A stretch of 64,000 nt of DNA from an uncultured bacterium. GTDB lineage: Bacteria; Calescibacteriota; Calescibacteriia; Calescibacteriales; Calescibacteriaceae. The DNA lies in the NCBI GenBank assembly GCA_938036315.1, contig CALHPK010000009.1, forward strand, positions 82,236-146,235, in the 5' to 3' direction. The position numbers were made by a program, and so were the translations under genes. The notes under the pieces were generated by a model. The model had not been told where the DNA came from. It searched no databases and was given only the letters and a program-made list of their open reading frames with translations. Shown here piece by piece: positions 6,104 to 62,565 of this stretch (position 1 is the stretch's first letter; every line of letters starts with the position of its first letter).

Positions 6104-6673
6104 ATGCAACCTGATGCTCTTGAAGAAATAAAACAAGAAGCTCTAAAAATAATAAAGGAGAAAGCTGTCCTGAAGGGAGAATTTATACTCTCATCAGGGC
6201 AGAAGTCTAATTTTTACATCGACATAAAAAGAATTACTCTGGATGGGAAGTTCTTAGACATTATTACTGAAATAATATCAGATTACGTTGCTAAAAACTT
6301 CAAAACTCGTAACTTTGCCGGGATAGAACTCGGAAGCGTTCCAATTGTTGCAGCTACAATCTTAAAAATGAAACAGAAAGGATATAATTCTAAAGGAGTA
6401 ATTGTGAGAAAAGAGTTAAAAAAATATGGAACATCAAGAGAAATAGAAGGATCGGAAGATATCGGTTCAGCAATATTGATAGAAGATGTAATAACAACTG
6501 GGAAAACAACTGCTGATGCAATAGATAAGCTCCTTAGGAATAACATAAAAATAGAAGGAGTAATCACAATCATAGATAGAGGCGGAGGAGAAAATATCAA
6601 ATCGAAAGTCGATAAATTCTTCTCCCTGTTTGAAGCACGGAATGTTCTAGAAGATTCAGAACCTAAAATTTAA
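6104..6673 (+). CDS. pyrE: Orotate phosphoribosyltransferase
   Basis: OPRT signature GEFILSSGQKSNFYID and PRPP-binding loop ILIEDVITTGKT. Confidence 0.65.
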   Translation: MQPDALEEIKQEALKIIKEKAVLKGEFILSSGQKSNFYIDIKRITLDGKFLDIITEIISDYVAKNFKTRNFAGIELGSVPIVAATILKMKQKGYNSKGVIVRKELKKYGTSREIEGSEDIGSAILIEDVITTGKTTADAIDKLLRNNIKIEGVITIIDRGGGENIKSKVDKFFSLFEARNVLEDSEPKI

Positions 6674-8703
6674 CGAATATCAAGTAGCTGAGAAAGAGTA
6701 CTTATTAGATTTCTTCCAACTATCTGTAAAAAGGCATTAATTTCAAACAAGGTCGGGAGTGAATATCCCCTCTCATCAATAGACGGAATGAAAAATCTCA
6801 GAAAATCCCTATCTATGTACAGGAACCCAAAAATATCAGGATTCTGAAAAGCTACATATGGGAAGACTGAAAACAAACCGTCAGGCTGAATACTGTAGTC
6901 TGTGGACTTAACCTTCAATCCTAATCTAACAGGTGATAGAAAGTGACCAGTATCAGCATACCTTATAGTTTTTTCGCAAAACTCAGTTCTACTCCCTGCA
7001 AAGTTCTCTCTTATTCTGAAACCTACACAGAATTTCTTACATACTCCTCCATCTTCCTCAAGACATATATTCTTATTTATGCCCTTGTCAGTTTTACATT
7101 CACCACTTTTCCCACAGTACTGGATACACCCCACATCTTGTGATGACATCAGAGATTCATAACAGTGCATAATGTTTATATCACAAGATACCTTTGAAGA
7201 TTCAAAGCACATATTAGCCCTTGGATACTTACAGAAGAATGAGAAAATTGGATTACTCTCTGCAAGAGCGGGAACATCAGGAGAATCAGAGAGGCACTCC
7301 CATTCAAGCATAAAGTAGTTATCAGAAGTCCAAGCAGGTAGAATCTGTCTCAAAGCAACCGGTTGAGAAAACAACACCTTAAAATTGAATTTCAATCGAT
7401 CCGGAATTATAGCTGTTATCAAACCAGCAACTATACCAGGATTCACAACTTGAAAAATCTGATTTACGACTCCTTGAGGTACGCCGACAGAAGAAACTGA
7501 AGATATGAAAGAACTTATTAACCAGTCTAATATACCTGTTTTGAGAAAAACTGCTATAGAGAAAGACAAAGCTTCCACAATATTTCTCCAAGAGATAAGT
7601 TCACCTTTCTCTACACTATTTTTCAAGGCAATAAAAAAGACTTTCAAATCTGGTGGTGGTATTAGAGTAGAAGCATAACACTTGACACATTTCCCTGTTT
7701 TTTCATCAATATACCCCCCTCTTTTTTCAGTAAGTTCTTTATCATAAAAGAAAGTAGAAGAAGTTGGGAAAGCAATAGTTTTTATAAAAGTTTCCCCTCT
7801 TTCTGATTCTCCCACCTCTATCCTCTGCACAATGTCATCGGCCTGATCATCTGTCTCACCAAGTAAGTAATCATAGAAATTAATCATAGAATCAGCAAGA
7901 CCTATAAGAGAATTGGGTATCTCTTCCGTCCAGTACCTGATCCCACGTTTCGGTTCAATCCCTAAAAATGTTTCTTTGTCATTGAGAATAAATGGGATTA
8001 TATTCATAATAAAGGTTCGCGCTGTAATAGCAGATATCCCTCCTTGAGATGATATGTACTCTGCAACTCTTAAGATATTCCCTATTTCAAGATGTATATC
8101 AACGCTCATTATAAGTTTGACAATAGCTACAACTGCGCTCATAGCAGCGTATAATAAGTTAGCATCCGCTGCATCATACTCACCGGAAAGATCTATTTCC
8201 CAGAATACTACATCGCGAAACTTTATGGTTATCGTAAGGTGTTCGACAAACAGGCTCCAACTTCTGTCTCTCCTTGGTATTTCAAGCTCTTGAATTATCC
8301 CTTCTATTGGTCTTATAAGATTTGGGATTAGCACATCAGCAACAAGGTCATTTAAAGTTCTACCTTTTGCTTCATCTGGAATTTCCGACTTTAAACCAAG
8401 CGGGGGAGATATTCCCCCTATGATTTGAGCTATAATATTTCCGAGCTCGATTACGATATTCTCTATACTTTTACCTAAAGTAGCTATCTTGACAAGCGCC
8501 AAGCCAAAATGAGCTCTGGGGTCATGTGGGGAAATTTTTAGAGCCTCTGAAAAAGCTCGAGAAGCTTGTCCGTATTCCTTTTCACCAAGGGAAATTACCC
8601 CCTCCTTTAATAGAGTTTCAACACTTTTGTCTTCCTTCTTCTTGCAGGTTCCTGAAAAGATAAATAGTGCAGAAAGCAAAATCAGTAGTAGTGCCCTTTT
8701 CAC
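6670..8703 (-). CDS. Secreted protein with N-terminal TPR-like helices and a cysteine-rich module
   Basis: Signal peptide, then a TPR-like segment (EKEYGQASRAFSEALKISPHDPRAHFGLALV). About 16 Cys are clustered in a ~120-aa stretch near the C-terminus. I recognise no known family. Confidence 0.3.
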   Translation of the reverse strand: MKRALLLILLSALFIFSGTCKKKEDKSVETLLKEGVISLGEKEYGQASRAFSEALKISPHDPRAHFGLALVKIATLGKSIENIVIELGNIIAQIIGGISPPLGLKSEIPDEAKGRTLNDLVADVLIPNLIRPIEGIIQELEIPRRDRSWSLFVEHLTITIKFRDVVFWEIDLSGEYDAADANLLYAAMSAVVAIVKLIMSVDIHLEIGNILRVAEYISSQGGISAITARTFIMNIIPFILNDKETFLGIEPKRGIRYWTEEIPNSLIGLADSMINFYDYLLGETDDQADDIVQRIEVGESERGETFIKTIAFPTSSTFFYDKELTEKRGGYIDEKTGKCVKCYASTLIPPPDLKVFFIALKNSVEKGELISWRNIVEALSFSIAVFLKTGILDWLISSFISSVSSVGVPQGVVNQIFQVVNPGIVAGLITAIIPDRLKFNFKVLFSQPVALRQILPAWTSDNYFMLEWECLSDSPDVPALAESNPIFSFFCKYPRANMCFESSKVSCDINIMHCYESLMSSQDVGCIQYCGKSGECKTDKGINKNICLEEDGGVCKKFCVGFRIRENFAGSRTEFCEKTIRYADTGHFLSPVRLGLKVKSTDYSIQPDGLFSVFPYVAFQNPDIFGFLYIDRDFLRFFIPSIDERGYSLPTLFEINAFLQIVGRNLISTLSQLLDIR

Positions 8704-12029: not shown

Positions 12030-14414
12030 ATGTTTTCGATCTTCTTCAGGATTTTTTTTCTGTTTGGTGCGGCTTTATTACTCAGCATCAAATCACTAAT
12101 TCCATCTACTACAAAAGAAGAAAATAGCTCAGAGAACATTGATTTTGAGATCTTTGGTCCTACACGAATAAATGGGGTAGTTGGCAATGGCGCCCTATCT
12201 TGCGGAATATCCGAATGGGGAGAAATAACCGTGCTTAGGTATCCCTCACCTTCTCATTGGGATCAACTTGATTACAAAACCAAACCAGGAGAAAAATCAC
12301 GAGAGCTGAAATATTTTGGAGCACTACCAAATCAAGGAAGCTTCATAGCAATCTACTATAACGGAAAATTAATAATTCTCAGAGATATAGAATCAAACAT
12401 GATAAACCAGCAATATAAATCAGAAGACTCTCCAATACTTGTCACAAAGTATAAAATTGATGATAATACCGAAGTTATTGTAGAGGATTTTGTCCACCCA
12501 AAAGAAGACATACTCATAAGAGAAGTTTCTCTGAACCTGCAAGGCTCTGGTGATGCTTACCTCATAAACTACTCCAACTTCGCACCTACAACTATAAAAT
12601 TACCTAAACTACCTCTGGAAGATTGGGATGATGACACAAAAAATGATTTTGCAGCATTTACCCAAGAAGGATCAGTTATACAATTCACACCGTTTTTTAG
12701 AACAAGAGATGAATTGAGAAAAGAATACAAATATGTTAGAGAAAACATAAATTCAAGGGAAAAACTTGTCGAGTATGCGAAAAACACATCAGGTATATTT
12801 ATAAAGAGTTTAGCTAAAGGGATCGGAAAAAGCTACTCATACATAGGATTTGATGAAAGATGTGGTGATGGTCGGGAAGCACCTCTAAGTACTCCGGAGA
12901 GTGCATTCGAGAAAATGAAAAAATTCTCTCCAGATAATTTATATGAGATTGAGAATGAAAATTTTGTTCTTTGTTCTGCGGATTCCGTAAACATTGCGAA
13001 AATCTGCGAAGCTGGAACTTGTAACAAAGGCTTTATCATAGTAGCTCTTGGGAAGAATTTGGAAGATGTCAACTCGAAAATGAATTTTGCACTGAAGAAC
13101 CTGCAAAAACTCAAATCAGAAACAGAAGAATACTGGAGTAACTTAATAGGAATGGTTAAGGAAAAAAGCTGGTTCTCAAAGCTAAAAGAGAAAGAAAAAG
13201 CGGTATGCCAGAGAGCCTTGATCTCCATCCTACAGGCAACTGACAGAGATACAAAAGCTACTGTAGCATCCATCTCAACACAACCTCCGTATGCAGAAGA
13301 CTGGCCAAGAGACGGAGCATATTTTAACATACTTTTGAACCTCGCTGGATTTACCGATGTGGCCAGAGAAAGAAATTACTTCTACGAAAAAGTTCAAAGC
13401 AAAGAACCAGAAGGAAGGATCCCAGCAGGAACATGGCGTATGAACTTTTACTCAGATGGGATGGTAGGTGGTCCATGGGACTTTGAAATAGATCAGGTCG
13501 GATTTGTAATATGGAGTTGGGCAACACACCTTATGTTTGAACCAAATAAAAACGAATTTCTGAAAAATATCTATTCAGCATTAAAACTTTCTGTGGAGGA
13601 AGTTCTCATAAATTGCAAAGATGAGAGAAATCTTCAATGTCTCGCTAATGAAGATGATAATCCAATACCGTCAGTAACAATAGTCGGAAGTGCTATGGTG
13701 TATGCCGGGCTCTTTCATGCTCAAAAGATAGCACAAGCTTACGGTGATCTAGATTTGTCATCAAGAATAAAAGAAAGGATGAAAGAACTGGAAATAGCCA
13801 TGCTACAAAATTATACCGATGAAAATGGATTTATTACATCATCAGCAAGCGAATTTCTAGAACAAGGCTTAGCATATATACTTTTCCCAGCAAACTTCCC
13901 TATGAAAACAGAGTGGATAATAAAGTACGGAGAAAGCTTAATTGATATGCTGAATCTCAATTTCAACAAAAAAGGATTCCTTCTGTATGAAGGGAAATGG
14001 ATAATCTCACTCATAATAGCCTCCGAAATACTAAAAAATAAAGATTATTTTTACTCAAAAAAATTCAAGGACGAAGCCGAAAAATATCTAAGAATACTTA
14101 TAGAAGAAGTTCCTACGAAAACCTACCACTATGGAGAAATAGCAAGATACACTGTCAAAGATGGTGGCAAGATCTACGAAAATAGAATAGCAATGCCACA
14201 TGTTTGGGAAGCTACTTTAAACTGCTTAACCTCTATAGCTTTACGAGATCCCCAAACCATTGAACTTATGGGAGTTGACTTGAATGTATATAAAGAACCT
14301 CGGAAGGAGAAAAAATCAATTTGTAGTTCATTTGGGCTTCTATCTTTCCACTTTATTATATTTCTTTATCTAATCTGGAGCTTTTTTAGAATCAGCTTAC
14401 ATTTCAGAGGATGA
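12030..14414 (+). CDS. Glycoside hydrolase family 15-like (glucoamylase/glucodextranase/trehalase-type (alpha/alpha)6 barrel) with N- and C-terminal hydrophobic anchors
   Basis: TVASISTQPPYAEDWPRDGAY matches the GH15 (I)VASPST...Y(x)W(x)RD motif. About 800 aa. A C-terminal TM helix (LLSFHFIIFLYLIWSFF) is present. Confidence 0.45.
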   Translation: MFSIFFRIFFLFGAALLLSIKSLIPSTTKEENSSENIDFEIFGPTRINGVVGNGALSCGISEWGEITVLRYPSPSHWDQLDYKTKPGEKSRELKYFGALPNQGSFIAIYYNGKLIILRDIESNMINQQYKSEDSPILVTKYKIDDNTEVIVEDFVHPKEDILIREVSLNLQGSGDAYLINYSNFAPTTIKLPKLPLEDWDDDTKNDFAAFTQEGSVIQFTPFFRTRDELRKEYKYVRENINSREKLVEYAKNTSGIFIKSLAKGIGKSYSYIGFDERCGDGREAPLSTPESAFEKMKKFSPDNLYEIENENFVLCSADSVNIAKICEAGTCNKGFIIVALGKNLEDVNSKMNFALKNLQKLKSETEEYWSNLIGMVKEKSWFSKLKEKEKAVCQRALISILQATDRDTKATVASISTQPPYAEDWPRDGAYFNILLNLAGFTDVARERNYFYEKVQSKEPEGRIPAGTWRMNFYSDGMVGGPWDFEIDQVGFVIWSWATHLMFEPNKNEFLKNIYSALKLSVEEVLINCKDERNLQCLANEDDNPIPSVTIVGSAMVYAGLFHAQKIAQAYGDLDLSSRIKERMKELEIAMLQNYTDENGFITSSASEFLEQGLAYILFPANFPMKTEWIIKYGESLIDMLNLNFNKKGFLLYEGKWIISLIIASEILKNKDYFYSKKFKDEAEKYLRILIEEVPTKTYHYGEIARYTVKDGGKIYENRIAMPHVWEATLNCLTSIALRDPQTIELMGVDLNVYKEPRKEKKSICSSFGLLSFHFIIFLYLIWSFFRISLHFRG

Positions 14415-16778
14415 TTCTTTCATCACCGATTCGGTGTAGCTTATAGTCTTATCCACAAGAATCCTTATGTTATTAAGATCTTGTTCCAATTTATCAACTG
14501 CTAAAATGATTTTTCTACTCTCTTCTCTAATTCCTTCGAGTGAAACCCTCATATCCCTTACTATTCCATTGTATCTTGAAATGATCATACGGTACTCTGA
14601 TGAGAATCTTTCGTATCTAGACTCAAGTTCTCTTATACTTTGAGAAACTTTTTCAAGTTTAGAGAATATATTATCTACAGAAGGAATAATTTCTGCTACC
14701 ACTCCTTTTATATCTTCAGATGCATTTGCAATGTCGGAAAACTTAGATTCAAACTCTGAAACTAACCTCGATACTTCAGAAAATGTCTTCTTCGTATTAC
14801 TCACATATCCTCCAAGCTGGTTCAGATACGACATAAAATCTTCGAGTATATCATCCACCTTTCCTGCATAAGCTTTTACAGATTCTATCTTATCTGCTAT
14901 AGCGTTATCCCCTAATAAAATCTCGAGCTTTCTTCTTATCTCATTTATCAATGAAATAATCTCCTTTGTACCGGATTCTATTCTTTTCACATCTTCACTA
15001 ATAAGATTGGAAAGTTGTTTTGAGAAAGTAGAGAACTCACCTGCAACTTCTGTCTGAGTAATCTTTGCGGAAGATATGGAAATATTCATTGAAAGTATAA
15101 CGAGTCTCTTTTTCAATCTATCGATTTCTGAACGCAAACTCTCAATATCTCTGAATTTTTCTTCAAGATCTTCAAAAGTATCTTTAGAAATTTTCACGCT
15201 TTCGCTAAGCTCATCTAAGGATTTTTTGAACATCTCAAACGAGCTTATAAGTATCTGAAATTTTTTTTCGACCTGAGTTCCAATCCTGCTACCAACTTCA
15301 TCTTGAGATAATGTTAGCACTCTTTTGGGGCCGCCTTTCAGAATATCGTAAATCTTTTGAAATTTAGATGAAACAGAAGAGAGTTTTCCTCTTAAGTCTC
15401 TTAGCTCTTTTATAATATCTAAAACTTCTTCAGATGAAGAAGAAGATGCCTCAAAAGTCAAAACTTCTAAAGTTTCAATTTCTTTACCAGACATTGCTAT
15501 AATTCTCTCCGAATTTATGCGAATCAACTTCAGATCATTTATCAATGAATTTATCTGCCCTCGCAGCGATATAGAATCTGAAAATATCTTTGAAAGAACC
15601 TTGCCGATTCTTGAAGAAAAATCATCACATCTTGAACTTAAGATTTCCACCATCCCATGAGTATAGTTATTCTCAATAGATATTTTAAAGAATTCATCAT
15701 TTGTCACAACCAAATTCTTAGAATCAATAAGATCTAATGCTTGAGAAATATAACTAACTAAAGAACTATAGAATGCATATATAACTACAAGAATAATCAC
15801 AGCTAAGATTCCAAATAGACTTAGGAAAAGCTTTTTGAACTCATCATCGATCCACTTCAACGGAAGATACAATCCTTTTATAACATTTTGACTCGCAAAG
15901 AAAACGAAAGCACCTGGAGAGACGTAGTCAAACAAAATATTCTCTCCAATACTTAACTTCTCTTTCATACTACTGATAATTACTTTATCAATGAATGGGT
16001 GCTCAGAATCTAAGATGCCAATCTCAAATGGTACAGTTCCTGGAATACTTTCGCCTCTGACAAAATCATCAAACACCTGCTTTGCCTCACTATATCTGAG
16101 CTGTCGAATGTGGTTTTCAATAAATATACTGCTTACTAAAAATGCCACAAACAAGGCGTATGAAATAAAAGCTATCAAAATCTTGAACTTCACCGAAATA
16201 GTAGGTGAAAAGTAAATTTTCTCCCTAATTTTACCTTCAATCTTAAATATCTTTGCAAATTCCCTTTCAAGATAATAGTAAATTATCTGTGAAACAGGTA
16301 GAGCTAAAAATACGATATTCAGAAGGAAAAAAAGGGCTACCCGTTCACTGGAAATCTCCCCAACCCTTATTATAACATACGATAAAATACCTGCAATAAT
16401 CCAAATCAAAAAAGATACGGACGCTGAATAAAATGGTAAAGAAGAATAAGAGTTTATAAACTGCAGAAGCTCAGCTCCAGTCCCTATCCCCTGATTCTCA
16501 AGTTGCAGAAGTTGTCGATAAACCTGCTTAGTTCTGACTAACACAGCAAAGGCATAAACCCCAAGAAGTACAATATAAACGAAAATTAGAGGAGGAAGTA
16601 TCCTCAGAAGAAATGGATATATCAACTTCCACCAATTAAGATAAACAACAGAAAAAACAACTCCTACAACCAAACCTACAAACACGCTCAAATATATTGG
16701 TAAAAGAATAGAGAGGAACACAATCTTTCTTAACTTGTCACTGATTCCCGGACTTACACGCAAAATACTCTGCTCCAT
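14397..16778 (-). CDS. Multi-pass membrane protein (about 6 TM) with a ~450-aa C-terminal coiled-coil region; possibly a very divergent MCP-like signalling protein
   Basis: Hydrophobic helices sit in the N-terminal 330 aa. The long heptad-rich C-terminus contains LSMNISISSAKITQTEVAGEFSTFSKQLSNL, which weakly resembles the MCP tip [29 protein letters not shown] but with a 4-aa gap. Confidence 0.3.
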   Translation of the reverse strand: MEQSILRVSPGISDKLRKIVFLSILLPIYLSVFVGLVVGVVFSVVYLNWWKLIYPFLLRILPPLIFVYIVLLGVYAFAVLVRTKQVYRQLLQLENQGIGTGAELLQFINSYSSLPFYSASVSFLIWIIAGILSYVIIRVGEISSERVALFFLLNIVFLALPVSQIIYYYLEREFAKIFKIEGKIREKIYFSPTISVKFKILIAFISYALFVAFLVSSIFIENHIRQLRYSEAKQVFDDFVRGESIPGTVPFEIGILDSEHPFIDKVIISSMKEKLSIGENILFDYVSPGAFVFFASQNVIKGLYLPLKWIDDEFKKLFLSLFGILAVIILVVIYAFYSSLVSYISQALDLIDSKNLVVTNDEFFKISIENNYTHGMVEILSSRCDDFSSRIGKVLSKIFSDSISLRGQINSLINDLKLIRINSERIIAMSGKEIETLEVLTFEASSSSSEEVLDIIKELRDLRGKLSSVSSKFQKIYDILKGGPKRVLTLSQDEVGSRIGTQVEKKFQILISSFEMFKKSLDELSESVKISKDTFEDLEEKFRDIESLRSEIDRLKKRLVILSMNISISSAKITQTEVAGEFSTFSKQLSNLISEDVKRIESGTKEIISLINEIRRKLEILLGDNAIADKIESVKAYAGKVDDILEDFMSYLNQLGGYVSNTKKTFSEVSRLVSEFESKFSDIANASEDIKGVVAEIIPSVDNIFSKLEKVSQSIRELESRYERFSSEYRMIISRYNGIVRDMRVSLEGIREESRKIILAVDKLEQDLNNIRILVDKTISYTESVMKESSSEM

Positions 16779-57077: not shown

Positions 57078-57656
57078 TTAAATTTTATGCAAAGGTTTAT
57101 CGCTTATGATAACTTTAAGAGTATATGGATTAATTACTACCCAATTTTTTTTGTCAATCTCAATTTCAACAAATGGGATATTCAATCTCTGGAATAATAT
57201 TTCAACATCTGCCCCAAATGTTTCTTCGTTTTCTACGAAAATTGCGGTGATTTCAGAACCAATTTTAATATCTTTGACTCTTTTCCACTCACATAAAATC
57301 GGTCTTACTTCTTCGAATACAAAAGGTAAAAATCCACCGAGCTGATCTTTTAGCTTCTCTATCTCTTTTTGCTTCTCCTTCCAGAGTTCATCTATTTCTC
57401 CTGATGGCACACATTCATAGATTTCAATTTTCCTGTCTTTCTTTGTAATCTTCACTTTTAGATTCTTTTTGTTTTTTACAACTTTTTCGAGAACATCGGA
57501 GAAGATTCTGTAAACAATTCTTGCGGAGCCCTTGCTCTTTTCACCTTTGGGGAGCTGGGGGAAGGCCAATATCAACACAAGTGTAAGAATAGCTATTACA
57601 ACCGAGAGTTCTATAAGAGTAAAGGTTCTGAACTTAATGTGATTATTGATCTTCAC
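57078..57656 (-). CDS. Type IV pilin-like pseudopilin (minor T2SS pseudopilin candidate)
   Basis: N-terminal class III signal KFRTFTLIELSVVIAIL. The FTLIE motif with Glu+5 is present, but position -1 is Thr rather than Gly. Confidence 0.5.
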   Translation of the reverse strand: MKINNHIKFRTFTLIELSVVIAILTLVLILAFPQLPKGEKSKGSARIVYRIFSDVLEKVVKNKKNLKVKITKKDRKIEIYECVPSGEIDELWKEKQKEIEKLKDQLGGFLPFVFEEVRPILCEWKRVKDIKIGSEITAIFVENEETFGADVEILFQRLNIPFVEIEIDKKNWVVINPYTLKVIISDKPLHKI

Positions 57657-57668
57657 GCAAGCACCAGC

Positions 57669-58094
57669 TTAGTATTGCAGACTTTCTCCAGCCACAGCCC
57701 CACTACCCTCTAAGCTCACATCATCCTGTGTCCCCGGAGCTCTATCAGGACCGCTAGATTTCAAAGTATAGACATTACCGTCGGATAAATAATAGTAATC
57801 TGATCCCCACGGATCTTTTGGTACTTGCCTTGCTTTAAGATATCCATTCTTGACCAAAATTGCTATCCCTTCTTCCGTTGTAGGGTATCTTCCATTTTCT
57901 AGCCTATATAGTTCTAGAGCCTGCTCTATCATCGTAAGCTGAGCTCTTGCTGTCTTTTCCTTTGCCCGCTCGAAATACCTTATAACATTTATACCAACAA
58001 GTCCAACAAGAAGCCCTATAATCAGAACAACAACCATTATTTCTATCAGAGTAAAGGCTCTCACCCTTTGGACTCTACTTTTTCTTTCTGCCAT
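57669..58094 (-). CDS. gspG: Type II secretion system major pseudopilin GspG
   Basis: RAFTLIEIMVVVLIIGLLVGL prepilin N-terminus and the GspG-typical PKDPWGSDYYY segment. Position -1 is Ala rather than Gly. Confidence 0.75.
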   Translation of the reverse strand: MAERKSRVQRVRAFTLIEIMVVVLIIGLLVGLVGINVIRYFERAKEKTARAQLTMIEQALELYRLENGRYPTTEEGIAILVKNGYLKARQVPKDPWGSDYYYLSDGNVYTLKSSGPDRAPGTQDDVSLEGSGAVAGESLQY

Positions 58095-58110
58095 GAAATT
58101 CTGTTATGAA

Positions 58111-58140
58111 TAAAAAAGAAGGGGGGAACTTCCCCCCCCC
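58111..58140 (-). terminator. Rho-independent terminator (read on the minus strand: G6-AAGTT-C6 hairpin followed by TTCTTTTTT)
   Basis: Seen directly as ggggggaacttcccccc with the T-run on the minus strand. It lies between the stop of the 1342-aa gene and the gspG start, which is only ~17 nt further. Confidence 0.55.
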
Positions 58141-58149
58141 TTTGCATCT

Positions 58150-61100
58150 TTACCTTTTTCTACTCTTCAATATAGCAGAGACAAACCCAAAGAGTAAAAT
58201 CATTAGCCCTAAGCTTGGAATACCAGCTGCAGAAGAAGACGAGCAACCAAATACCCCAACTTTTTCAGTAACGAAGAATCTGTGCTTATATGTAGATATA
58301 TTACCTACATCATCCTTTGCTCTGACCTCAAGTATGTGCTCACCTTTTGTAAGCCCTTTAAGGTCAATCGCGGTGATCTCAGATGCAGATTTCCAACCAC
58401 TCCATTCTCCACCATCAATCCTATAAGATACTAATACCACGTCTTGAGGAGCTTGTGCATCGCGAATGTCAGCAAATACCCTTACAGAATTTCCCTTCAC
58501 AACTTCGGGGGCTTGAAGTCTTATATCAGGTCCGACTGAGTCAACCCTGAAGATATACCTTGCTGGCGTTGGGTCAATAAACTTGTTCTCATCCCTAGAT
58601 CTAACCTCAAACATATGGTAACCTTCAAGCAAATGAGTCAGAACAACTTCGTCACTGCTCTGCCAGAGACTCCACGTTCCCCCATCTAATCTCCAGGAGT
58701 ATTTTAGTCCAGAAGAACTATTAGCACTCCACCCAGCAAACTTAATCTTTGTAAACAGAGCATGCGGATCGGATGTGTAAACTATGAAAGTCTCTGGAGG
58801 AGTTACCTTATAGCCATTGCCATTAACCTCATAGTCAGCAAGTCTTACTTGAACAGGAACCTGCGGAGCACCTCCCATGACCCCGCTGATAGTATCAACT
58901 ATATCCACCCCAAAGTTTTTCAAAAGCTTTATTATATTTGTGAGAGTTGGCCTGCCTCTCCAGTGTATAAACATCTCAAAGTAATCCCCTACACCATCCG
59001 CTGGATTGCCTACAAACGGAGTGTCCCAATTCTGAACCCCGGTTCCGAACTCAGGACCAACCCATGGGAAGTTAAGCTCTATTGGAATCTGGATCAAAGC
59101 AGTGGGATCAAGAGCTACTCTAAGTTTTGCCCCGGCAAGACCATTTAAGACCACTGGAAGAACATTCCCAAGAATCTCAGACCACTGAGAACCTGAAAGC
59201 CCCAGAGCATTAGAGTTATAAGCTATGAAATACCTTACATCAGGGTCAGCATAAAGAGTCAGATCTATCACACGGGCAAATGTCCCCCCCTGAGGGAAAT
59301 AAGCATTATCTTTATTATAAGCTTGACCAGTGTAATAATCTTTGTAAATTGATGTCAGAGGTTGGGTAAAATTAGTAGAATCATATGGCGGGAATTTAAC
59401 AGTCAGACCGCAATCAGGAGATACGCACGGAACTATATCAACATCTACAGAAAGCCTAATTCCAACTGTCAGACCGAATACCCTCATCCAGTTTCTTGAG
59501 GGGGAATTTATATCTCCTGTCGTTATAACATTAAACGAAAGATCTATATACGGCAGATCTATTGTAAGATCAGCTGTATCAAACCATGTTGAAGGACTTG
59601 GAAACATTGTGAACGAACTTCCGAATGTAGCATTTGAAACGAATTCTGACCAGAAATTAACCCTTGTTGAACCAGTCATATACACATTGTTGACAGGTCT
59701 GAAAGTAGGACCACCTGTCTTAGCATAAGCCACAACAGATAAAGGCTTGTTATATGATGCTGCTCCACCTGTATTCCCAGATGGATTTCCTGGATCTCTG
59801 TAATTTGGAATGATCTCCACTGCCATATCTTTGCCTGGGAATGCATCTTTTAATTTTGGCATAAAGAATGCAAACGAATCGGTCTTGAGGAAACCGCCAG
59901 CAAACCCCCCAAGCATTGGTGTATACTTATCTACCCAAACACAAGCAAGACCATCACCTATTGCTTCATAAAGTATACGAGAAATAAGATTGTGATGAAC
60001 CGCAATCCCTACATAGTAACTTGTCAGGCTATATCCATATCTACCCTCTGCAAGCGTTGGAGCCGAAGGATATTGTGGCAAAACCTCGGAAGAGAAAACA
60101 TGTGGATACACACCCGAATTATTGTTAAGAGCACCTGTACACTGGGAGACCGTTCTTACTGGAGCAGGGCAGGTAGTTTGTGGTACACATTCTCTTATTA
60201 AGTTTATTGGGCTTGTTGCAGCTTGAAGTGCTGCAAAATTTCCTTGCACACAAGTTGAAACATAGTCATTAAAGTTTTGCAGTTTAACCTGAGTAATACT
60301 TGTTGCTGGCGAATTCCACAGAACGTATCTTATATCAACCCCAACATTCATTGCAAGTATAATTCCTGCTGAGTCTGCCCAGAAATCATTTGTAAAACCA
60401 AAATCAAAAAAGATCTTATTAGGCTTGTGTGTATAGTAATCAGGAGCCCCAACATATATAACCTCCTCAGTTGGATGATCTACTGGGCTCAGGGATTTTA
60501 TTATATCTTTTAAATCGAAAACCTGTCCCGGAAAGAGGAAATAAGCTATACAAGTATCATATTGAGTAACTGTGTGATTGGGGATACAATCGGTTCTGAA
60601 GTAATCAAGTGCCATAAGTCTGAGCACAGCGTCAAGCCACAGAAGAGTTTTTGCAAATTTTTGTGAAACTCTGTACTCGGGACAATACTGAGCGGTTCCA
60701 ACCTGGTTCCAGTTCGGGTTTCTACACGCCGGAGTTGTAGCGGACGAACTCATTGGTACAAAGTCATAAGCAACTCCTGCTACCAAATCCAACGCTTTCA
60801 AGTTTATACCTAATCCCCTCACAACCTTGCCCCAATCATAGTCATCAGTAAAATTTCCTTTTATCTGTATACCAAGTCTCAACCCCAAAATCGGCATCCT
60901 TATATATGCTCTTCCATTTATGTAATTTGAGATAACTCTCTCAGGATCATAATCATAATTGGTAGTGTTTTTCCCTGGGTATTGAGGGTCACATATATGC
61001 TCATCATTCTTAACATCTCTGTTTTTAAAGCAGAATGAAGCCGAGTTCGGGAAGTAAGTCGCAGATGCATTAAAATTACAACTTGGTCCAAAAGATAAAC

Positions 61101-62178
61101 AATCAATATACAAATTTTGAGATGAAACATATGGAGATGAGAATGTAAGGGCAACCTCAAAATTCCTGAGTTCAACTGTTATATCAAGATAATCATCTGT
61201 GGTATGCTCGGTATAGTCACCTTCACAAGTTGCAGTCGCTGGCCAATCTTCACCTATGTTCCCCTTAAGTCTCACAGTCAAATCTTTCCTGTTATAGTCA
61301 ACAATAAGCCTATTTCCTGTAATCCGGTCTATAAAGTAGTAATTATCCCAATTCCACGGAGAAGAAGTCGGACAAACGCCAGGTAAGTCTCTCCCACACT
61401 TTCCGAACGGAGACCAGTAAAACCCACCCATAGCATATGTGATCGGATTTCCTGCTGCAGGTCCAACTCTTTTATCTCTCTCCTGCCCCCATATTATAGC
61501 ATTTACACATATCGGTGCTCCTTCATCGTTAAGAAGTGGGATTGGGAGACACATTGAAAAAAGACCTTTACCATCGTCTTTGCAGGAATTAGTTCCCTGA
61601 TCCCATGTCCCAGTTGGGTTATACCCTGCAATGTACTCAAAGTAAATTTCATTCCCAAAACAGTGAGTGGTACCTTCACCGTAGTTAAAAAGGGAAGGAT
61701 TACTGGTAGTAATTCCACAGGCGTAGGTAGCATTCTGGAGGTAGTAATTTTTAGTTGGCTGGTTCGGGTAATTATTATCTATCCAGTAGGTGAAATCTGC
61801 ATAATTATCCCATAGGTCAGCAACAACTTTAGTATCTGTGCATTTGTCTAAAAATCCCATTGCAAGGTAGTTTATAAGATTTGCAACAGATGGATCTCCC
61901 GAGAGTATGTCAGAAATTAAATCTCCTATCTCTTTAAGTCCTGCTTGGGTAAGCCTTACAACAACATTGTGCTTTTCAAGCAAGCGCCTCTCAAGAACAG
62001 CAGTGCTCGTCACACCTCCCCAAGTTATGGGGTTTTTAGGCCCCACCTGATACGGGTTGGCACTAGTTTCTGTAACCGGTCTATCCTGATGGAATGTAAC
62101 AGCAAGAGTAGAATATGGGAGAACAAAAACCGCCGTAAAGATTAGCCCTACCAACGCTGATACAATTTTTTTACCCAT
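58150..62178 (-). CDS. Giant secreted/cell-surface protein with two C-terminal Y_Y_Y-type domains and a Cys-containing C-terminal sorting signal (MYXO-CTERM/Synerg-CTERM-like)
   Basis: N-terminal signal peptide. The body is rich in G/N/T/Y/P/D/S and compositionally distinct from its neighbours. Tandem Y_Y_Y-type repeats (YSWRLDGGTWSLW...GYHMFEVRSRD; YRIDGGEWSGW...GEHILEVRAKD). The C-terminus is VFGCSSSSAAG-IPSLGLMILLFGFVSAIL-KSRKR. Confidence 0.5.
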   Translation of the reverse strand: MGKKIVSALVGLIFTAVFVLPYSTLAVTFHQDRPVTETSANPYQVGPKNPITWGGVTSTAVLERRLLEKHNVVVRLTQAGLKEIGDLISDILSGDPSVANLINYLAMGFLDKCTDTKVVADLWDNYADFTYWIDNNYPNQPTKNYYLQNATYACGITTSNPSLFNYGEGTTHCFGNEIYFEYIAGYNPTGTWDQGTNSCKDDGKGLFSMCLPIPLLNDEGAPICVNAIIWGQERDKRVGPAAGNPITYAMGGFYWSPFGKCGRDLPGVCPTSSPWNWDNYYFIDRITGNRLIVDYNRKDLTVRLKGNIGEDWPATATCEGDYTEHTTDDYLDITVELRNFEVALTFSSPYVSSQNLYIDCLSFGPSCNFNASATYFPNSASFCFKNRDVKNDEHICDPQYPGKNTTNYDYDPERVISNYINGRAYIRMPILGLRLGIQIKGNFTDDYDWGKVVRGLGINLKALDLVAGVAYDFVPMSSSATTPACRNPNWNQVGTAQYCPEYRVSQKFAKTLLWLDAVLRLMALDYFRTDCIPNHTVTQYDTCIAYFLFPGQVFDLKDIIKSLSPVDHPTEEVIYVGAPDYYTHKPNKIFFDFGFTNDFWADSAGIILAMNVGVDIRYVLWNSPATSITQVKLQNFNDYVSTCVQGNFAALQAATSPINLIRECVPQTTCPAPVRTVSQCTGALNNNSGVYPHVFSSEVLPQYPSAPTLAEGRYGYSLTSYYVGIAVHHNLISRILYEAIGDGLACVWVDKYTPMLGGFAGGFLKTDSFAFFMPKLKDAFPGKDMAVEIIPNYRDPGNPSGNTGGAASYNKPLSVVAYAKTGGPTFRPVNNVYMTGSTRVNFWSEFVSNATFGSSFTMFPSPSTWFDTADLTIDLPYIDLSFNVITTGDINSPSRNWMRVFGLTVGIRLSVDVDIVPCVSPDCGLTVKFPPYDSTNFTQPLTSIYKDYYTGQAYNKDNAYFPQGGTFARVIDLTLYADPDVRYFIAYNSNALGLSGSQWSEILGNVLPVVLNGLAGAKLRVALDPTALIQIPIELNFPWVGPEFGTGVQNWDTPFVGNPADGVGDYFEMFIHWRGRPTLTNIIKLLKNFGVDIVDTISGVMGGAPQVPVQVRLADYEVNGNGYKVTPPETFIVYTSDPHALFTKIKFAGWSANSSSGLKYSWRLDGGTWSLWQSSDEVVLTHLLEGYHMFEVRSRDENKFIDPTPARYIFRVDSVGPDIRLQAPEVVKGNSVRVFADIRDAQAPQDVVLVSYRIDGGEWSGWKSASEITAIDLKGLTKGEHILEVRAKDDVGNISTYKHRFFVTEKVGVFGCSSSSAAGIPSLGLMILLFGFVSAILKSRKR

Positions 62179-62565
62179 ATCTTTTACCTCCCTGTGAAAA
62201 CTTTTTTACAGAAAAAAATATAATCACTTTTTCTGAAAAAGTCAAGTTTTTGAACATCTCCGCTCTCCCTTGTCAGGTAAAGGATTCCGAAGATCAACTT
62301 TCAAAATTTTCTGTCACACGCACAATTTTTTACAAAATTTTCAAAATGTAAATTATGTCTAACTAAGCAAAAAATTTCTCATCAGTAATCTCTTCTTTAA
62401 ATAATCACAAGATTGGTAATTCTTTTTTTGCCAAACTTAGCTTAGCTAACTATACAATACAAAAAGCTATTCATCTACTCTTCTGAAGAGATTCTAAAAA
62501 AGCTCTGAAGTTTCTCATACAAAAAAGAATATAGAAAACTATAGAGATATTATGTTAATCTTGTT

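Follow-up and report, generated by a model that had tools for sequence, protein, structure and literature searches.

Cysteine-type C-terminal sorting signals, comprising the MYXO-, JDVT-, Synerg- and CGP-CTERM tags, have been described together with their CPBP proteases (Haft, 2023, bioRxiv 10.1101/2023.06.07.544157). In the model for MYXO-CTERM, whose published range is Myxococcota and Bradymonadales, the protein is exported by Sec, retained in the membrane by its C-terminal helix, lipidated at the Cys, cut by a CPBP/Rce1-type myxosortase and transferred to the cell surface through a type II secretion system (T2SS) (PMC11980579), with cleavage by MrtX having been shown experimentally (Guo, Haft and Wall, 2025, PMC11980579). 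Cargo bearing MYXO-CTERM or GlyGly-CTERM depends on the T2SS, Synerg-CTERM co-profiles with a dedicated T2SS cassette, and CGP-CTERM is the tag of a hyperthermophilic archaeal order, Thermococcales (bioRxiv 10.1101/2023.06.07.544157). Here we analyse a gene for a 1342-residue secreted protein, hereafter the giant protein, in a stretch of 64,000 nucleotides (the window; positions 82,236 to 146,235 of contig CALHPK010000009.1, assembly GCA_938036315.1) from an uncultured bacterium of the Calescibacterota. A preliminary description of the window had given this protein a C-terminal sorting signal of the MYXO- or Synerg-CTERM type and had placed its gene in an operon with two T2SS pseudopilin genes.

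We consider it probable that the giant protein is exported by Sec, resides at the cell surface and is rich in disulfides, and that its last 36 residues form a Cys-containing tripartite signal of the MYXO-CTERM class that directs sorting. It is one among several clients of such a tag in Calescibacterium, the others being a GH15-like protein and, in related genomes, M19 and M6 peptidases. The tail would thus work like a MYXO-CTERM-class signal; we do not file the window protein as a curated member of TIGR03901 or TIGR03382, because its tail lies below the hidden Markov model (HMM) cutoff, its host lies outside the published range and the cognate protease was not located in the lineage DNA examined. 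Related loci and proteins are referred to below by our L and P numbers.

An invariant Gly-Cys-Ser motif in the tail of the giant protein

The open reading frame (ORF) of 1342 codons, the Sec-type signal peptide (MGKKIVSALVGLIFTAVFVLPYSTLA, followed by V, as read directly from the sequence) and the low content of Lys and Glu (4.0% and 3.1%, respectively, versus 8.2% and 7.9% in the remaining ORFs of the window) are all as first described, and Sec-type leaders are likewise found in the orthologs. The tripartite layout of the C-terminus was also borne out: it reads ...VGVFGCSSSSAAG, an 18-residue hydrophobic stretch IPSLGLMILLFGFVSAIL and KSRKR, and the C-terminal 233 residues, as modelled by AlphaFold (mean predicted local distance difference test score, pLDDT, of 77), consist of two beta-sandwiches, a disordered linker that contains the Gly-Cys-Ser (G-C-S) motif, and a terminal helix. 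This helix has no charged residues, yet has Pro1321 at its start, and Cys1312 is the single Cys of the tail.

Close homologs of the giant protein (17 in all) come exclusively from the Calescibacterium lineage, from hot-spring metagenomes or from metagenome-assembled and single-cell genomes of Candidatus Calescibacterium (Calescamantes/EM19). All 15 full-length orthologs, which share 59-71% overall identity, have a tail with the pattern G-x-[LF]-G-C-S followed by hydrophobic residues and a cluster of R/K, while the intervening residues drift; in the alignment (A4), G202, C203 and S204 are invariant. Cys1312 is invariant across these 15 and nearly so across the wider family.

A hydrophobic helix with a basic end suffices for stop-transfer, and the giant protein could accordingly be a permanent type I inner-membrane protein that uses the tail Cys for a disulfide or for metal binding and undergoes neither cleavage nor outer-membrane transit. 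We regard such a plain anchor as unlikely. It leaves unexplained why G-C-S is invariant amid a drifting tail, and the 24 Cys of the ectodomain, being even in number, would leave Cys1312 as the unpaired one.

Among the described Cys-type tags, Synerg-CTERM of Synergistota (TIGR04564, with protease MrtS, NF040589) resembles the tail in being found in a non-proteobacterial diderm and in having Ser/Gly-rich surroundings of a single Cys, and its published tie to the T2SS is the kind of association that the preliminary description proposed. In Synerg-CTERM, however, the Cys abuts a Leu-rich helix with an invariant Pro, whereas a spacer of ~8 residues separates the two here; the window tail had no match to TIGR04564, and the best ortholog scored 13.9 bits versus a cutoff of 22.5. 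JDVT-CTERM of Pseudomonadota (NF033191, with protease MrtJ, NF033192) is also alike in tail length and in having one invariant Cys, but its near-invariant Asp-Pro nine residues past the Cys is missing here, and it occurs as one client per genome with an adjacent protease, whereas here the clients are several and no CPBP gene was found beside them; the best Calescibacterium tail scored 7.3 versus a cutoff of 27. For CGP-CTERM (TIGR04288) the NCBIfam scans gave no match, and the Cys is followed by Ser instead of Gly-Pro. The GlyGly-CTERM/rhombosortase system of Vibrio (VesB) follows the same tripartite logic, and its hydrolases depend on the T2SS for their place at the surface, but it has a GG signature and a rhomboid serine protease, neither a GG nor a rhombosortase-like gene being found here.

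Further secreted proteins with the same C-terminal design

We scanned the window and the related loci for ORFs of at least 150 residues that have a terminal uncharged helix preceded, within 14 residues, by a Cys and followed by at least two K/R. The motif is not unique in the genome, since a second candidate cargo, the GH15-like protein (Table 1), is encoded in the same window. The scan also returned a protein with M19 and DUF8251 domains in L001/L010, whose tail reads ...YGCS..., and, in L004, an M6 peptidase with the tail ...AGCSCS..., and all three of these further clients have signal peptides. The 11 remaining ORFs with a terminal transmembrane (TM) helix and basic residues, which lack the Cys, all encode polytopic membrane proteins, and the rule was passed by none of the 1144 ORFs in 539 kb of DNA from unrelated bacteria. 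With the residue frequencies of the lineage, the chance that four independent families would all show C-S within the 17 residues that precede the helix is ~4e-8, and this pre-helix Cys-Ser on unrelated secreted hydrolases is a second feature that a plain membrane anchor leaves unexplained.

Orthologs of the GH15-like protein in the Calescibacterium lineage end in GCS, GCI, GCQC or GCSC, and nearly all of its full-length homologs have a GC-type tripartite tail; those from other phyla (28-41% identity) have GCGC, GCAC or GCSC, one of them being annotated as MYXO-CTERM at its source. Judged by these tails, Cys-tag sorting appears to be habitual for the GH15-like family.

An Ig-repeat protein of 780 residues (L002:4794-7136, minus strand, with an equivalent in L008) has a tripartite look, its end being ...GGGAGTVLSC...helix...RAKKKKKNS, but its score on the tail HMM of the lineage is only 6.1 bits, which makes it doubtful as a client. 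The GH15-like gene of the window converges on a gene for a 793-residue coiled-coil protein (14397-16778, minus strand), with an 18-nt overlap at the 3' ends; the coiled-coil protein has only sub-threshold Pfam matches, one of which, to Baculo_PEP_C, is shared by the product of a 796-residue gene that in L013 lies ~6 kb away from the gene for the GH15-like protein.

Distant relatives pass curated models and one adjoins a myxosortase-like protease

When the N-terminal 1098 residues of the giant protein served as query for an exhaustive HMMER search, ~12 distant relatives from other lineages (26-38% identity) were retrieved. All that are full length have at their terminus [GS]-F-G-C-[SA] followed by a helix and an end rich in Arg (RRR). 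One of them (P0091) passes TIGR03901.2 (23.9 versus 20 bits) and another (P0086) passes TIGR03382 (20.5 versus 15.85), while P0085, P0090 and P0097 reach 19.6-19.9 versus 20, and P0090 scores 26.2 versus 27 on the JDVT model. Within the Calescibacterium lineage, the tail of ortholog P0008 passes TIGR03382 (16.9) and scores 17.4 versus 20 on TIGR03901.2. The comparison with Cys-type CTERM models therefore gave a split result, in that the tails of an ortholog and of relatives lie at or above threshold and that of the window protein below it. As to the signal type first proposed, the MYXO-CTERM side is supported by the invariant G-C-S, the unrelated clients and the relatives that pass MYXO models, and the Synerg-CTERM side is not supported, its cutoff not having been reached.

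P0085, the best-scoring distant relative (E=3e-40), is encoded in L016, 3 kb from a gene for a CPBP protease of 219 residues (6366-7025, minus strand), the two being divergently transcribed and separated by mutS alone. This protease scores 100.4 versus 100 bits on the Mrt_core model NF040914, and over its full length it is matched best by MrtP, MrtC and MrtX. A permanent anchor would not account for the retention of FGC[SA], the passes of MYXO-CTERM models or this Mrt_core-positive neighbour among the relatives. L016 is a contig of Logan SRR27730023 with a G+C content of 42%, from an uncultured source that may lie inside or outside the published Mrt range.

Taken feature by feature, the tail shares with MYXO-CTERM and its proteases MrtX, MrtC and MrtP (TIGR03901, TIGR03382, NF040914) the Gly-Cys at the extreme C-terminus, followed by a spacer, a helix free of charged residues and a basic end. 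Also shared are the occurrence of the tag on several unrelated proteins with signal peptides, among them hydrolases and large adhesin-like proteins, and, in a distant family member, a neighbouring Mrt_core-positive protease. It differs in that the giant protein has G-C-S with a single Cys instead of the frequent GCGC (the M6 client has CSC, and relatives of the GH15-like protein have GCGC or GCSC), in its Lys-rich basic end (KSRKR) and the Pro near the helix start, in the sub-threshold score of the window tail and the lack of a located myxosortase in this lineage, and in its host, the Calescibacterota being a hot-spring candidate phylum outside the published range.

Search for the protease and for T2SS genes

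Several results weigh against a MYXO-CTERM-class signal in the giant protein. Its tail scored 11.2 bits on the MYXO-CTERM model TIGR03382 (cutoff 15.85), had no other NCBIfam match and did not match TIGR03901.2, and the M19, M6 and GH15 tails match no curated CTERM model. Tail HMMs built by leaving out one family at a time gave the held-out families 0-13 bits versus a background of 9-12, which is not significant, so that support across families is architectural and statistical and not profile-based. The 64-kb window, annotated in full, contains no gene for CPBP/Mrt, Lgt, a prepilin peptidase or GspD/E/F, and searches of ~350 kb of lineage DNA by motif, tblastn and phmmer, and with the L016 myxosortase as query, yielded no Mrt-like gene. 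Adjacency to an Mrt gene was seen in one of the four distant-relative loci (L016-L019), and lipidation, cleavage and dependence on the T2SS are proposed by analogy with the described systems. As for the T2SS, the lineage DNA examined contains GspG and one further pseudopilin but none of the core genes GspD/E/F. A tail-only profile search of an index of 5.8 billion proteins gathered 262 candidates and gave 2 matches, too few for a census.

For a housekeeping sortase that serves many clients, linkage to cargo is not expected (Haft, 2023, bioRxiv 10.1101/2023.06.07.544157), and the lack of a protease gene nearby is therefore uninformative rather than negative. An M48 peptidase encoded near the L002 cassette was considered as a lead to a Ste24-type CAAX protease and was dropped for want of conservation in L001 and L003.

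The plain anchor has on its side that no sortase was found in this DNA, that the window tail lies below the curated cutoffs and that profile similarity across families is not significant. The failure to find an Mrt gene in ~350 kb would also suit a genuine sorting signal handled by an enzyme of another class, rhomboid-type, exosortase-type or novel, in which case the tail would be a new type of signal and no relative of MYXO-CTERM; in L016 the second gene downstream of that for P0085 encodes a rhomboid, and the tails of three clients match no curated model. This alternative seems to us slightly less likely still than the plain anchor. The L016 rhomboid is GlpG-like and scores 29 bits versus the rhombosortase cutoff of 84, the tail bears no GG, PEP or PGF signature, no curated models other than those for MYXO and JDVT, both of the Cys type, are approached or passed by the tails, and a protease positive for Mrt_core stands beside a family member, while a missing neighbour is what a many-client housekeeping sortase would lead one to expect (Haft, 2023).

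An orphan Cys-rich ectodomain on two Ig-like domains

Positions of the features of the giant-protein locus and of the second cargo gene are collected in Table 1. The giant protein has 24 Cys in its ectodomain besides Cys1312 in the tail. For its core, no Pfam or NCBIfam match was found when the protein and its wider family were scanned, and PDB profile searches with alignments of the orthologs and of the wider family gave nothing credible; AlphaFold modelling of residues 27-1124 with 16 orthologs attained a pLDDT of only 28.5. The sole hint on the core is a set of weak BPI/LBP/CETP matches at positions 631-658 of the family alignment A5 (PDB 1bp1, E=0.36; LBP_BPI_CETP_C, E=0.0046 in one member), which are probably noise.

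Table 1. Features of the giant-protein locus and of the second candidate cargo gene (positions within the window; a slash marks the predicted cleavage site)
Feature	Position	Strand	Basis
Secreted Cys-rich surface protein gene (cargo; giant protein)	58150..62178	-	ORF; 17 close homologs and distant relatives
Putative sigma-70-like promoter, TTGACT-17-TATATT, best match upstream of the cargo gene	62217..62245	-	match to the consensus alone
Signal peptide, residues 1-25 (MGKK, hydrophobic core, TLA/V)	62104..62178	-	read from sequence
Orphan ectodomain core, residues 26-1124, 24 largely invariant Cys	58807..62103	-	no domain or PDB match
FnIII/Ig-like beta-sandwich domain 1, residues ~1129-1212	58543..58794	-	AlphaFold pLDDT 70-92; Foldseek: tandem FnIII structures
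FnIII/Ig-like beta-sandwich domain 2, residues ~1218-1304, with sub-threshold Y_Y_Y/Big_13 match	58267..58527	-	AlphaFold, Foldseek, Pfam
Putative C-terminal sorting tail, residues 1307-1342: VGVFG-C1312-SSSSAAG spacer, helix I1320-L1337, KSRKR	58153..58260	-	ortholog conservation, model
Intrinsic terminator, 13-bp stem with 7 G-C pairs, T-run, between cargo stop and gspG	58105..58143	-	hairpin and ortholog conservation
gspG, major T2SS-type pseudopilin, 141 codons, leader RA/FTLIE	57669..58094	-	TIGR01710, PF08334, PDB 5wda
pp2, second prepilin-type protein, 192 codons, leader RT/FTLIEL, orphan globular domain	57078..57656	-	class-III leader; weak N_methyl matches
Second cargo candidate: GH15-type secreted protein, 794 residues, ending ...KKSICSS-FGLLSFHFIIFLYLIWSFF-RISLHFRG	12030..14414	+	TIGR01577 93.6 bits, E=1e-26; tail scan

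The two Y_Y_Y-type immunoglobulin (Ig)-like domains attributed to the protein are only partly upheld. Both modelled C-terminal sandwiches match tandem fibronectin type III (FnIII)/Ig-like structures in Foldseek, and 9 of the 17 wider-family members match Y_Y_Y (best E=4e-7); the giant protein itself, however, scores 18.8 bits on Y_Y_Y (PF07495) versus a gathering score of 26.6, and no stretch of it passes alone. In the models, the fold of these domains is a generic FnIII/Ig-like sandwich, and the pair probably acts as a stalk. Because of its 24 conserved Cys, this stalk and its size, our guess is that the giant protein is a disulfide-stabilised adhesin or surface-matrix protein.

In two paralogs, P0015 (L004:579-5222) and P0016 (L012:10001-14216), a block of MopE-type Cys-rich repeats (PF11617) is inserted between the core and the FnIII/Ig domains. 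TraA, a MYXO-CTERM protein of Myxococcus, has a comparable Cys-rich repeat stalk.

The pseudopilin genes probably form a separate transcription unit

As first described, gspG and a second pseudopilin gene, pp2, follow the giant-protein gene on the same strand. GspG scores 112 bits on TIGR01710 (cutoff 88.85) and matches the solved GspG structure 5wda with E=2e-22; its leader has Glu at +5, and Ala, not the canonical Gly, at -1. The second protein is identified by its class-III leader: its pilin helix alone matches PDB entries and its globular part matches nothing, and its gene always accompanies gspG in the loci seen. At -1 of the prepilin leader, both pseudopilins have Ala, Ser or Thr in every locus (window, L001-L003, L006-L008, L010 and L020). 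In L003 (8075-8686), an AsnC_trans_reg-like frame enters gspG without a stop to give a product of 203 residues, which may be a gene-call artefact or a fusion.

The claim that the three genes form an operon was not supported. Hairpins equivalent to the terminator of the window (dG -17 to -25 kcal/mol) lie directly 3' of the cargo stop in 10 of 10 ortholog loci, differ in stem sequence with compensatory changes, and are present whether gspG or aroA comes next. The terminator stem of the window contains a run of nine G (58132-58140, minus strand), a homopolymer that could favour slippage or assembly error.

The order giant-protein gene-gspG-pp2 is kept in the window, L001/L010, L002/L007/L008, L003 and L006, with flanks that vary: phoU (window), glyA (L001, L002) or thiI (L003) downstream, and a DUF790 gene (window) or atpA (L001, L002, L003) upstream. 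No pseudopilin genes adjoin the orthologs in L009 and L011, and the paralogs (L004, L012) have no pilin genes beside them, nor have the four distant relatives (L016-L019). When metagenomes were scanned with gspG, mostly unrelated GspGs were retrieved, and one distinct locus of the Calescibacterium lineage (L020, and the identical L021), in which gspG-pp2 lies between a dienelactone hydrolase gene and efp, with neither a giant-protein gene nor a T2SS core gene within 10 kb. Given the conserved terminator, the missing adjacency in L009 and L011 and the separate pair in L020, we conclude that gspG-pp2 is a free-standing two-gene module and a separate transcription unit, read-through being possible, and that its adjacency to the cargo gene is a lineage-limited partial synteny, not an operon.

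These data also bear on whether the giant protein might work with the two pilin-like proteins as a three-protein machine, as a PilY1-like tip adhesin or as the dedicated substrate of a minimal pseudopilus. Genes for large adhesins often lie next to those for minor pilins, and the trio is maintained in five sets of loci despite changing flanks. Even so, this is the least likely of the alternatives and in our view improbable: a conserved terminator divides the genes, orthologs occur without the pair and the pair without an ortholog, paralogs and distant relatives have no adjacent pilins, and a C-terminal TM tag is not a known feature of PilY1-type proteins.

Discussion

A MYXO-CTERM-class signal would imply the following course for the giant protein. 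Its signal peptide would direct it across the inner membrane, where helix I1320-L1337 would retain it with KSRKR in the cytoplasm. If the analogy with the described systems holds, Cys1312 in G-C-S would then be lipidated, a CPBP/Rce1-type protease of the myxosortase family would remove the helix, and the lipid-anchored protein would cross the outer membrane to the surface, most likely by way of a T2SS. Of these stages, the sequence itself displays the features of the first two and the conserved Cys. The window, whose G+C content of ~36% agrees with an origin in Calescibacterium, encodes TamB and a SurA-like chaperone, and the host cell is therefore a diderm; this envelope and the presence of GspG are in line with the proposed course.

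The preliminary description took the signal and its linkage to pseudopilins to be new for a thermophilic lineage. Cys-type signals, including one in a hyperthermophile (CGP-CTERM), and co-profiling with the T2SS were in fact published in 2023-2025, and what appears undocumented is the occurrence in Calescibacterota, for which we found no description of a Cys-type tag in the literature, nor an NCBIfam model for it reached at cutoff. The finding, if true, would thus be a known class in a new phylum and no new mechanism.

On a wider and frankly speculative view, which we hold to be possible but doubtful, sorting by Cys tag and myxosortase could be old and widespread in uncultured diderms, including a deep-branching hyperthermophilic phylum, with the orphan ectodomain protein as a conserved core client and the GspG pair recruited as a minimal export module in some genomes.

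If the assignment is right, myxosortase-type Cys sorting would extend from its prior range (Myxococcota/Bradymonadales, some Pseudomonadota, Synergistota and Thermococcales) to the Calescibacterota, an uncultured phylum living at ~80 °C, which suggests that surveys based on RefSeq have underestimated the spread of the Cys-tag system. Two tag-bearing protein families, the orphan giant protein and the GH15-like enzyme, would span several lineages. A hot-spring streamer heterotroph would thereby gain a concrete list of surface-displayed hydrolases, and a large conserved surface protein is singled out for structural and functional work.

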